Positions 29,471 through 31,180 of a stretch of 64,000 nucleotides of DNA are shown here, in pieces. Origin of the DNA: Candidatus Nomurabacteria bacterium UBA5155 (GTDB taxonomy: Bacteria > Patescibacteriota > Minisyncoccia > Phycocordibacterales > UBA9973); assembly GCA_002413705.1 (NCBI GenBank), contig DHXN01000011.1:162-64161 (forward strand), written 5' to 3'. The position numbers and the translations under genes were made by a program. The first letter of the stretch is position 1, and each line of letters opens with the position of its first letter. The notes below the pieces were generated by a model, which was not told the origin of the DNA, made no database searches, and saw only the letters and a program-made list of their open reading frames with translations.

Positions 29471-29496
29471 CAATAAAAGTGTTATGAGTATAACAC
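29471..29496 (-). terminator. Weak intrinsic terminator after lexA
   Basis: gtgttat-gagt-ataacac then T-rich on minus strand. Confidence 0.3.
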
Positions 29497-29520
29497 AGAT
29501 ATCATATATATAAAGGAGAT

Positions 29521-30084
29521 TTAGTATTTTCTCATCACACTGCGGACAACTGCAACAATCGTGAGTTCGTATTCAGGATGAATAGGTTTGTAGTGTTTGT
29601 TCGCTGGCTCAAGCCAAAGTTTATTATTTTTACTCCGCAAGAATTTCATTGTGAATTCTCCGTCCACTTGAGCAATGACAATATCGCCATCTTTGGCGGT
29701 ATTGGTTCGTTCTGCAATGACAATATCGCCATCAGCAATATGAGCTTCGATCATGGAGTCGCCGTCCACTTCAAAAAGATAGGTACTGGCTTTTTTTGGT
29801 ACGAGATATTCTTCAATATTGAGTGTGTCGGTCAACATTTCGCCAGGAGATGGTAGTCCGGCTTTAATAAAACCAACCATTGGTATGTCGTTGAAACCAT
29901 CGCTGGGAATAAGTTTTCCCAGTTTGTCTTTGGTCACTATGCCCGCTGCAATGAGTTTGGTTACTACGCGATACACAGCATTCTTGGATTTGAAACCAAA
30001 AATAGTCATCATCTCAGTGTAGGTCGGCATGCGTCGTTTTGATTGATAGAATGAGAGAAGTTTTTCTTTGTAATCTGGAGTCAT
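29521..30084 (-). CDS. lexA: LexA repressor (S24 peptidase)
   Basis: N-terminal wHTH; VDGDSM Ser and GEFTMKFL Lys catalytic regions. Confidence 0.85.
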   Translation of the reverse strand: MTPDYKEKLLSFYQSKRRMPTYTEMMTIFGFKSKNAVYRVVTKLIAAGIVTKDKLGKLIPSDGFNDIPMVGFIKAGLPSPGEMLTDTLNIEEYLVPKKASTYLFEVDGDSMIEAHIADGDIVIAERTNTAKDGDIVIAQVDGEFTMKFLRSKNNKLWLEPANKHYKPIHPEYELTIVAVVRSVMRKY

Positions 30085-30100
30085 ATGTTAGAAATGGATA

Positions 30101-30283
30101 TTAGAAACTAAGCACTTGCTGAAAGAATTGTAACAGAAAATGCTTATTCTTTGTAGGTTTGTGTCGTCCAAAAGAACGTGACAACGAAAGCAATGAAAAA
30201 GAAGTGCGGTCATTGTCGTAACTTAATCGCTCAAGACGACTAAGTTCATTTTTGAGAGTGAGCTGGAATGGAGTGGTTTTCAT
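30101..30283 (-). CDS. Small ORF 2 (60 aa), translationally coupled (ATGA overlap) to small ORF 1
   Basis: Start ATG overlaps stop of upstream sORF; basic, no TM. Confidence 0.35.
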   Translation of the reverse strand: MKTTPFQLTLKNELSRLERLSYDNDRTSFSLLSLSRSFGRHKPTKNKHFLLQFFQQVLSF

Positions 30284-30468
30284 GCAAATACTCGGCCGAA
30301 GAAACCTCCTTTTTGATCATACTTTTGAGCGCGAAGCTTTCGAAGCAACATACGATGCTTTTGAGCCTCTGCCATGTATTGCTGCCCGCTGACAATCTTT
30401 GCGTCGATACGCTCATTTAATGTATGTATCTGACGTTCTAGTGTTGTGATGTATTGATTTTTTGACAT
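30280..30468 (-). CDS. Small ORF 1 (62 aa, coiled-coil, basic), first gene of SOS-box-controlled lexA operon
   Basis: ORF begins ~30 nt downstream of predicted TSS of SOS-box promoter. Confidence 0.45.
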   Translation of the reverse strand: MSKNQYITTLERQIHTLNERIDAKIVSGQQYMAEAQKHRMLLRKLRAQKYDQKGGFFGRVFA

Positions 30469-30512
30469 ATATATTCTAAATAATTACTCCTCTTGTAACT
30501 TCTTTAGTATAT

Positions 30513-30528
30513 GTGAACGAACGTTCAC
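30513..30528. promoter_or_regulatory. Cheo-type SOS box GTGAAC-GAAC-GTTCAC inside spacer of promoter TTGCAT-17-TATACT (minus strand, -35 30534..30529, -10 30511..30506)
   Basis: Matches Gram-positive LexA consensus GAAC-N4-GTTC; perfect 6-bp arms. Confidence 0.65.
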
Positions 30529-30556
30529 ATGCAAGCAAATACTTGTGGATAACTAT

Positions 30557-31180
30557 TTACCTAGTCTTTATTTCCTCTTTAGCTAAATTGTTGATGATTT
30601 TCTTCCAAAATAATGCTACCCCAAGTGCAATAGCAAGGAAAAACACAATACTAAAATTACCAATAAGATCATTTACTGCCTGCCAACTGTCACCGAACAG
30701 ATATCCCACCATTGCATAGAAAAATGTGTCAGCAAATGCACCCATCGCTTCAAATAACAGAAACTTTCTATAGCGAACATTTCCCATGCCGCAAATCAGA
30801 TTGGTGGTCAGTGTCGCAATCACTTCAAAGCGAGTGATGAAAATAATAAAACCTGGTCGTTTATTGATTCTTTTTTCAATCAAGATGAAATTCCTTGATG
30901 TTAAAATCTTTTTAAGAAATCCTACTCGATACAATAACTTTTTTCCATATATTCGCGCTAACCAAAATGACAGGTTGTCCCCCGCCATGTTTGCAATTGT
31001 GACAACAATAATCAGTACGACAATATTAAAATACCCCTGACTGGCGAAAGCGGCAGATGCAACAAGCAATGTTCCGGCAGGGATTGGAATAGCCAGCGCC
31101 GCTAAAAAGGTAATGACGAACAATGCTGTATATTTATAGAGCAAGATGTACGGCAGTATTGTTTGCGCCAAGAAGCTCAT
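30557..31180 (-). CDS. DedA/VTT-domain membrane protein
   Basis: Characteristic DedA hydrophobic profile and motif region. Confidence 0.75.
   Translation of the reverse strand: MSFLAQTILPYILLYKYTALFVITFLAALAIPIPAGTLLVASAAFASQGYFNIVVLIIVVTIANMAGDNLSFWLARIYGKKLLYRVGFLKKILTSRNFILIEKRINKRPGFIIFITRFEVIATLTTNLICGMGNVRYRKFLLFEAMGAFADTFFYAMVGYLFGDSWQAVNDLIGNFSIVFFLAIALGVALFWKKIINNLAKEEIKTR

Follow-up and report, generated by a model that had tools for sequence, protein, structure and literature searches.

A probable autoregulated lexA operon led by a conserved small-protein gene in Paceibacteria

Why would a lexA gene lie behind two small open reading frames, at the end of a transcript whose promoter itself appears to carry a LexA-binding site? 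The question arises in the Patescibacteria (CPR), which are uncultured, ultra-small, and poorly understood, and for which, to our knowledge, almost nothing is known of cell-cycle checkpoints. A Gram-positive-type LexA box and the autoregulation of lexA are both textbook features. We studied such a locus in a 64,000-nucleotide (64-kb) stretch of DNA from Candidatus Nomurabacteria (called the window below; GC content ~42%), along with related loci. An earlier note on this DNA had placed a LexA box, a -35 hexamer, a spacer, a -10 hexamer, two small ORFs (here sORF1 and sORF2), and lexA on the minus strand, and all of these coordinates proved correct on re-reading. From its sequence, the locus as a whole is probably best explained as a lexA operon that is autoregulated, in a member of the Paceibacteria (Patescibacteria/CPR).

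For comparison, GTDB species were scanned with one genome each, giving 398 loci with LexA relatives. The comparative sample consists of the best 80 of these 398 loci, whose LexA proteins are 57–88% identical to that of the window; all 80 are from Patescibacteria MAGs carrying Nomurabacteria, Paceibacterota, or Minisyncoccia labels. Loci with enough sequence upstream of lexA are termed informative, and the exceptions to detection of sORF1 are contig edges.

LexA, its operator, and the transcript

The lexA gene (29521..30084, minus strand) encodes a protein of 187 amino acids. The protein matches Peptidase_S24 (PF00717) with an E-value of 4.9e-25, and it aligns with TIGR00498 over residues 14–186 at 106.9 bits, slightly under the cutoff of 110.95. 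LexA repressors are its best matches in the PDB, over residues 19–171, with the E. coli LexA structures aligning from residue 19; the PDB matches include both LexA and UmuD. The translation contains the Ser-Lys dyad, with Ser110 in GDSM and Lys147 in TMK spaced 37 residues apart, and a cleavage site between Ala75 and Gly76 (GFIKA75-G76LPSPG) that lines up with the region around the cleavage site in T. maritima LexA. For the N-terminal winged-helix DNA-binding domain of the LexA type, PF01726 gives a match of only E = 0.18, and for this reason we treat the protein as host LexA with a divergent DNA-binding domain. An identical 187-amino acid protein occurs on metagenome contigs that carry the same 62- and 60-amino acid gene calls.

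The putative promoter of the operon is composed of a -35 hexamer TTGCAT (30529..30534, minus strand), read directly from the sequence, a 17-nt spacer GTGAACGTTCGTTCACA (30528–30512, minus strand), and a -10 hexamer TATACT (30506..30511, minus strand). Relatives have TTGACA, TTGACT, or TTGCAT at the orthologous -35 positions and TATACT or TATAAT at the -10. The predicted LexA operator GTGAACGTTCGTTCAC (30513..30528), with its core GAAC-N4-GTTC, occupies 16 of the 17 spacer positions. A generic promoter scanner did not list the TTGCAT/TATACT pair, because the pair matches the consensus at only 8 of 12 positions.

Counted by itself, the bare motif is at chance level: GAAC-N4-GTTC is observed once in the 64 kb against 0.87 expected. 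The 16-mer GTGAAC-N4-GTTCAC, with at most one mismatch, has an expectation of 0.19 in the same window. Because of the chance-level count, the case for the operator was rebuilt on conservation. G[A/T]AC-N4-GTTC is flanked by a -35 resembling TTGACA and a -10 reading TATACT or TATAAT in 75 of the 76 informative related loci; the 76th has Ns at the operator position. In these 75 Paceibacteria lexA loci, GTGAACGnnCGTTCAC occupies the -35/-10 spacer of a promoter 5' of the same small ORF. The flanking GT and AC, which are outside the search pattern, are invariant in all 74 of 74 sites, and the operator consensus across relatives is GTGAACG(A/C)(T/G)CGTTCAC. The operator is kept also in the divergent loci L084, L085, L088, and L090.

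A weight matrix was built from the sites of other species, with the window's own species left out. It scores the window operator at 27.5 bits and the runner-up in the 64 kb at 5.1 bits, and a scan with this matrix found no second SOS box in the window. Related loci totaling 648 kb contain extra matches to the 12-mer, and these were put down to chance, as they occur at the expected rate, inside coding regions, and without the flanks. Judged by cross-species conservation, which is decisive here, the operator is real despite the chance-level bare motif. The earlier placement of a LexA box within the core promoter is borne out by the same box standing in register in 75 of 76 related loci. A Gram-positive-type SOS box is recognized by conservation of GAAC-N4-GTTC in orthologous SOS promoters, and such conservation was found, in register with the -35 and -10.

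The arrangement resembles Cheo box systems in two respects: a palindromic GAAC-N4-GTTC core lies over lexA's own core promoter, and the LexA repressor has an S24 Ser-Lys dyad. It differs from them in that the conserved site is longer here (GTGAACGnnCGTTCAC, with invariant GT and AC flanks) and lies exactly within the -35/-10 spacer, and in that lexA would not be first in the transcript. The 16-bp operator model provides a clean basis for regulon prediction in Paceibacteria genomes. The box type is already known in Patescibacteria, the SOS network of which was analyzed by Sanchez-Osuna, Barbe, and Erill (Environ Microbiol 2017, 19:3465), as cited in PMC8565304.

These elements suggest a mechanism. 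A LexA dimer on the 16-bp palindrome GTGAACGnnCGTTCAC would cover the entire spacer between the -35 and -10 and keep RNA polymerase off. Upon DNA damage, RecA*-ssDNA would bring about self-cleavage of LexA at Ala75-Gly76 by the Ser110/Lys147 dyad, freeing the promoter. One transcript, beginning near 30499, would then carry sORF1, followed in this sub-clade by sORF2, and finally LexA, and newly made LexA would close the loop. We infer LexA binding, the position of the transcription start, and co-transcription from the sequence.

The position of sORF1 relative to the promoter bears on where this transcript begins. In at least nine species (L016, L032, L038, L051, L056, L067, L072, L075, and L077), the ATG of sORF1 is located 7 nt after the -10, so the transcription start would lie upstream of sORF1; the lexA-operon mRNA in these species is probably leaderless. 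The window's species has a predicted leader of ~30 nt instead. That lexA is the last gene of a small-ORF operon is supported by the conserved arrangement, the tight gene spacing, and the leaderless sORF1 starts in several species. The same evidence supports the suggestion in the earlier note that lexA is autoregulated as the third gene of an operon. A stable RNA structure in the 5' UTR finds no support, the fold z-scores being near 0 in most species.

The sole Shine-Dalgarno-like sequences, GGAG(G), ahead of sORF1 and sORF2 are at 30487–30492 and 30305–30310 (minus strand), unusually far from the ATGs at 18 and 21 nt, respectively. The one ahead of sORF1 is kept in the closest relatives (..GGAGTAATTAT..). 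At predicted transcript positions +1 to +10, many relatives (e.g., L015, L024, L043, and L064) share a short motif, GGTCGC or AGTCGATT, unaccompanied by stable RNA structure (fold z-scores near 0).

Upstream of the lexA-operon promoter, a DedA/VTT gene on the minus strand ends at 30557. Downstream of lexA, no terminator-like hairpin was found (29474–29520, minus strand), and transcription from the SOS promoter may read through into the next gene, which encodes an ABC-F protein. The ABC-F gene has an extended -10 promoter-like site of its own, TTTATA-16-TATACT with TG (29487–29514, minus strand).

A DnaA-type site upstream of the promoter

An element absent from the earlier note, TTATCCACA, is located at 30544..30552 on the minus strand, ~-53 to -45 from the predicted transcription start. 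This 9-mer is a perfect match to the DnaA-box consensus (TTWTNCACA), which may not be the consensus of this group. TTATCCACA occurs as a single copy in the 64 kb. In 627 kb of related loci, 67 of its 78 copies are at this promoter, all in the same orientation, and most of the remaining loci have one-mismatch variants, such as TTTTCCACA.

The distance between TTATCCACA and the LexA box falls into three classes, namely 8–9 nt (7 loci), 15–19 nt (49 loci), and 26–28 nt (11 loci), with no intermediate spacings seen among these loci. The steps between classes are ~8.5 and ~9.6 bp, near one helical turn but not exactly 10.5. At least 13 changes of spacing class are needed on the LexA tree of 74 taxa, and the quantization is therefore not one inherited state. 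The enrichment, common orientation, and quantized spacing of TTATCCACA support its being a protein-binding site, and the steps of nearly one helical turn suggest that whatever protein binds has to be oriented toward RNA polymerase or LexA.

DnaA is the obvious candidate for this protein. We give roughly even chances to TTATCCACA being a high-affinity DnaA site that adds an input of replication status dependent on the helical face; the presence of only a single DnaA-like box at this promoter counts against DnaA. Neither dnaA nor oriC was found in the 64-kb window.

In E. coli, uvrB, recN, and dinJ are co-regulated by DnaA and LexA (PMC6015884; reviewed in PMC8203912). Similarly to the locus studied here, these genes have a consensus DnaA box and a LexA box at one promoter. 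The present case differs in that the dual-site promoter would drive lexA itself, and in that a single predicted box is found at quantized distances upstream of the -35. A DnaA-type site that is both conserved and constrained in spacing suggests the integration of replication status with DNA damage at the promoter of the master regulator itself; dual DnaA/LexA control is known to us from single SOS target genes of E. coli alone. The sda gene of B. subtilis is controlled by DnaA and encodes a small helical-hairpin checkpoint protein. The predicted product of sORF1 is also a small helical hairpin, but its sequence is not similar to that of Sda.

Copies of (a)gTTATCCACA(g) with the same flanks were also observed in intergenic positions away from lexA (L048 3192, L049 2714, L029 7087, L013 6880, and L035 5654), and these may be other targets of the same factor. 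The copies in L043 and L053 are inside conserved coding sequence (tentatively an atpD-like peptide, ELIHNI) and look coincidental.

The small ORFs

The sORF1 gene (30280..30468, minus strand; ATG at 30468 and TGA at 30280) encodes 62 amino acids. By tblastn, every one of the 76 informative loci has sORF1 directly upstream of lexA, and in most species the two genes adjoin with nothing between them. The gap between the two genes is typically 1–40 nt, and is -8 (an overlap) in two loci. In the divergent loci L084, L085–87, and L090, sORF1 is again followed by LexA, with entirely different flanking genes. In L088 (1913–2737), the order is swapped: lexA is first and sORF1 is 15 nt downstream, with the same TTATCCACA and LexA-box promoter sitting ahead of lexA. 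L089 was considered as a second lexA-first locus and was rejected, as its upstream "gene" is a read-through artifact and the locus is uninformative.

An alignment of relatives has invariant residues at M1, N18, I21, D22, Y31, and H38 of sORF1, and near-invariant residues at Y6, K24, I25, and G28. Among nine close species, pN is 0.24 and pS is 0.72 for sORF1, as compared with a pN of 0.10 and a pS of 0.76 for lexA. The resulting pN/pS of 0.33 for sORF1 is an overestimate, because synonymous sites are saturated. A profile search of a 5.8-billion-protein set returned 278 sORF1 homologues, all of them unannotated or hypothetical and without a Pfam domain; those with an organism name are all from Nomurabacteria, Paceibacterota, or unclassified bacteria. 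An exhaustive HMMER search yielded 357 representatives at 50% identity, essentially all of which are 50–130 amino acids in length. Searches of Pfam, NCBIfam, PHROGs, and PDB profiles returned nothing significant for sORF1 or sORF2. From its conservation, sORF1 is a genuine gene of an unannotated family.

An AF2 model of sORF1, calculated with a 63-sequence alignment, predicts a helical hairpin (H3–27 and H32–53) followed by a floppy tail, with pLDDT values >90 over residues 1–50. Proteins of the family are strongly basic (median pI 10.2), and Phe makes up 20% of the tail. Searching the PDB for fold relatives of the model returned generic helical hairpins only (SSV1 D-63, FrmR/CsoR, and the SerRS arm), all with E >1, and these were not taken further. 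No transmembrane-grade stretch was found, the maximal Kyte-Doolittle value over a 19-residue window being <1.0 in all 75 sORF1 and 18 sORF2 proteins.

Of 75 sORF1 tails, 49 contain the short motif [hydrophobic]2-x-[RK]-[hydrophobic]2 (e.g., FFNRFF, FFGRVF, and LFSKLF), as compared with 2.7% of control windows. The membrane-targeting tail of E. coli MinD, KGFLKRLFGG (PMC5471200), fits this pattern. The likeness lies in basic residues ahead of a hydrophobic-hydrophobic-x-[RK]-hydrophobic-hydrophobic stretch close to the C-terminus, and is seen in the same 49 of 75 sORF1 proteins and in 5 of 23 sORF2 proteins; it is limited to this short motif, the remainder of sORF1 being unrelated to MinD and the amphipathicity being without statistical support. 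The hydrophobic moment of the sORF1 tail is not above that of shuffled controls, by a metric that scored the genuine MinD tail low too.

The conservation of sORF1 bears on whether the small ORFs might be translated leaders only, which would load ribosomes onto a leaderless or weakly Shine-Dalgarno-led mRNA for coupled translation of lexA and yield functionless peptides. Leaders of this kind would fit the leaderless starts in several species, the lack of an obvious Shine-Dalgarno sequence for lexA in the window, and the tiny gaps from lexA to the upstream stop codon, but not the invariance of sORF1 residues across species with LexA proteins 57–88% identical to the window's. The low pN/pS with saturated synonymous sites and the confidently predicted fold likewise argue against them, as does L088, in which sORF1 is downstream of lexA and still conserved. 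We consider leaders without a function of their own to be highly unlikely.

The second small gene, sORF2 (30101..30283, minus strand; ATG at 30283), encodes 60 amino acids. It overlaps sORF1 by ATGA, and lexA follows after a 16-nt gap. An ORF of 54–71 amino acids fills a 180–230-nt gap between sORF1 and lexA in ~18 of 80 species; the others have no room for it. The window's sORF2 has a predicted N-terminal helix with the motif TPFQxxLxNELxRLE and a predicted hydrophobic C-terminal helix; across species the N-terminal motif is TPF(Q/K)xL(V/L)xxE(L/M)xRL(E/Q), and the C-terminus is again hydrophobic. In the AF2 model of sORF2, which is of low confidence (pLDDT 69), a linker joins helices at the two termini. 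Only 12 homologues were found in the 5.8-billion-protein database, and pN/pS is 0.48. As judged from these comparisons, sORF2 is a real gene under purifying selection, confined to a sub-clade and young. Homologous small ORFs beside lexA in relatives, which had been expected if the two ORFs were genuine, are thus on record for both sORF1 and sORF2, and the pN/pS values provide the coding signature for each.

Paralogy between sORF1 and sORF2 was considered and is not supported, the hhalign probability being 3%. In one lineage (P0278–P0282, L013), sORF2 ends in RKG(L/I)LARVFGN(Y), which is the sORF1/MinD tail motif, the two families not being detectably homologous.

The earlier note took the two small ORFs to be a coupled pair and a candidate toxin-antitoxin-like module. 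Coupling is seen in the window, in which two small genes overlap by ATGA under a putative stress promoter, as might be expected of an SOS-induced toxin-antitoxin-like pair. The pair is not obligate, however: most species with sORF1 have no sORF2, which is limited to the sub-clade, and the ATGA overlap is found in the window's species only, sORF2 beginning 10–30 nt past sORF1 in the closest relatives. Type II toxin-antitoxin systems are obligate pairs with recognizable domains and a patchy or mobile distribution. Here neither protein matches Pfam, NCBIfam, or PHROGs, no toxin or antitoxin domain is seen, and the distribution looks vertical and is syntenic with lexA rather than patchy or mobile. 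A toxin-antitoxin-like pair is extremely unlikely, and this part of the earlier proposal is not sustained.

Possible roles of sORF1

The other alternative raised in the earlier note, an SOS effector such as a division inhibitor, is plausible. We tentatively prefer to regard sORF1 as an SOS effector, not a leader peptide, and specifically as a peripheral-membrane checkpoint effector. This reading is drawn from analogy with non-homologous lexA-adjacent division inhibitors and from the MinD-like tail. The invariant polar residues of the hairpin (N18, D22, K24, Y31, and H38) suggest a specific partner, and the basic, Phe-containing C-terminal tail (FFxRFF-like) would, like that of MinD, take sORF1 to the membrane. 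Once there, the most plausible action of sORF1 would be to hold back division or the cell cycle pending completion of repair. It would thereby be a functional analogue of YneA, SosA, ChiZ, and DivS, with sORF2 a younger accessory of similar design.

YneA, SosA, ChiZ (Rv2719c), and DivS are non-homologous SOS division inhibitors located beside lexA in Gram-positive bacteria (PMC6851548). The likeness to sORF1 is that these proteins are small, fast-evolving, mutually non-homologous, lexA-adjacent, and controlled by a LexA box, and have hydrophobic or membrane-directed parts. Their genes diverge from lexA, whereas sORF1 is co-directional and predicted to be co-transcribed with lexA. They also have a transmembrane segment, often with LysM, whereas sORF1 is a predicted basic hairpin with a short MinD-like tail and has neither. 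Of the features that mark SOS division inhibitors, predicted LexA control and adjacency to lexA were thus found for sORF1, the latter in co-directional and not divergent form; a transmembrane segment, with or without LysM, was found in neither sORF1 nor sORF2. The absence of this segment sets both small proteins apart from YneA, SosA, ChiZ, and SidA. In addition, sORF1 lies ahead of lexA, often with seeming translational coupling, so that its basal synthesis should be appreciable, an awkward property in a division inhibitor.

Co-transcription ahead of lexA would suit a partner better than a toxic inhibitor. The main rival explanation is that sORF1 is an accessory of the SOS switch, made stoichiometrically with LexA, which binds either LexA (as a co-repressor or cleavage modulator) or RecA. 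Possible analogues are gp7 of phage GIL01 for LexA, and DinI and RecX for RecA. The strict linkage to lexA is in keeping with such a partner: the very short or overlapping gaps suggest translational coupling, and the linkage outlasts both the gene-order swap and the complete turnover of flanking genes. The linkage could, however, merely reflect the sharing of what is possibly the only nearby LexA-controlled promoter. Invariant polar residues on a small predicted hairpin likewise suggest a specific protein interface, but the MinD-like hydrophobic tail is left unexplained, and no natural sORF1-LexA fusions occur among the 357 representatives. We judge an accessory of this kind to be rather unlikely.

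The checkpoint effector and the LexA partner come together in a broader proposal, which we offer with some reserve. The locus may be a two-input SOS promoter, with a DnaA site and a LexA operator, whose first product is a small, lineage-wide basic hairpin with a MinD-like tail; this protein would be a checkpoint effector of a new class or else a partner that LexA requires, and sORF2 would be a recent add-on of the same design. In either case, a small protein that has remained with lexA in hundreds of species offers a concrete candidate, open to testing, for the missing SOS effector or a LexA partner in the Patescibacteria. Three features appear to be undescribed in the databases and literature searched: the family of sORF1, the linkage to lexA seen throughout the sampled loci, and the DnaA-type site with its constrained spacing. 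The 2017 study of SOS in Patescibacteria may mention an upstream ORF.

Public annotation of these loci contains an artifact that deserves flagging. The gene calls for proteins P0261, P0264, P0235, P0196, and P0177 and for gene 1 of L089 are over-extended at the 5' end. These calls translate the LexA box and the -10 into a spurious N-terminal "GER(S/V)FTYT," and the artifact also marks the operator.
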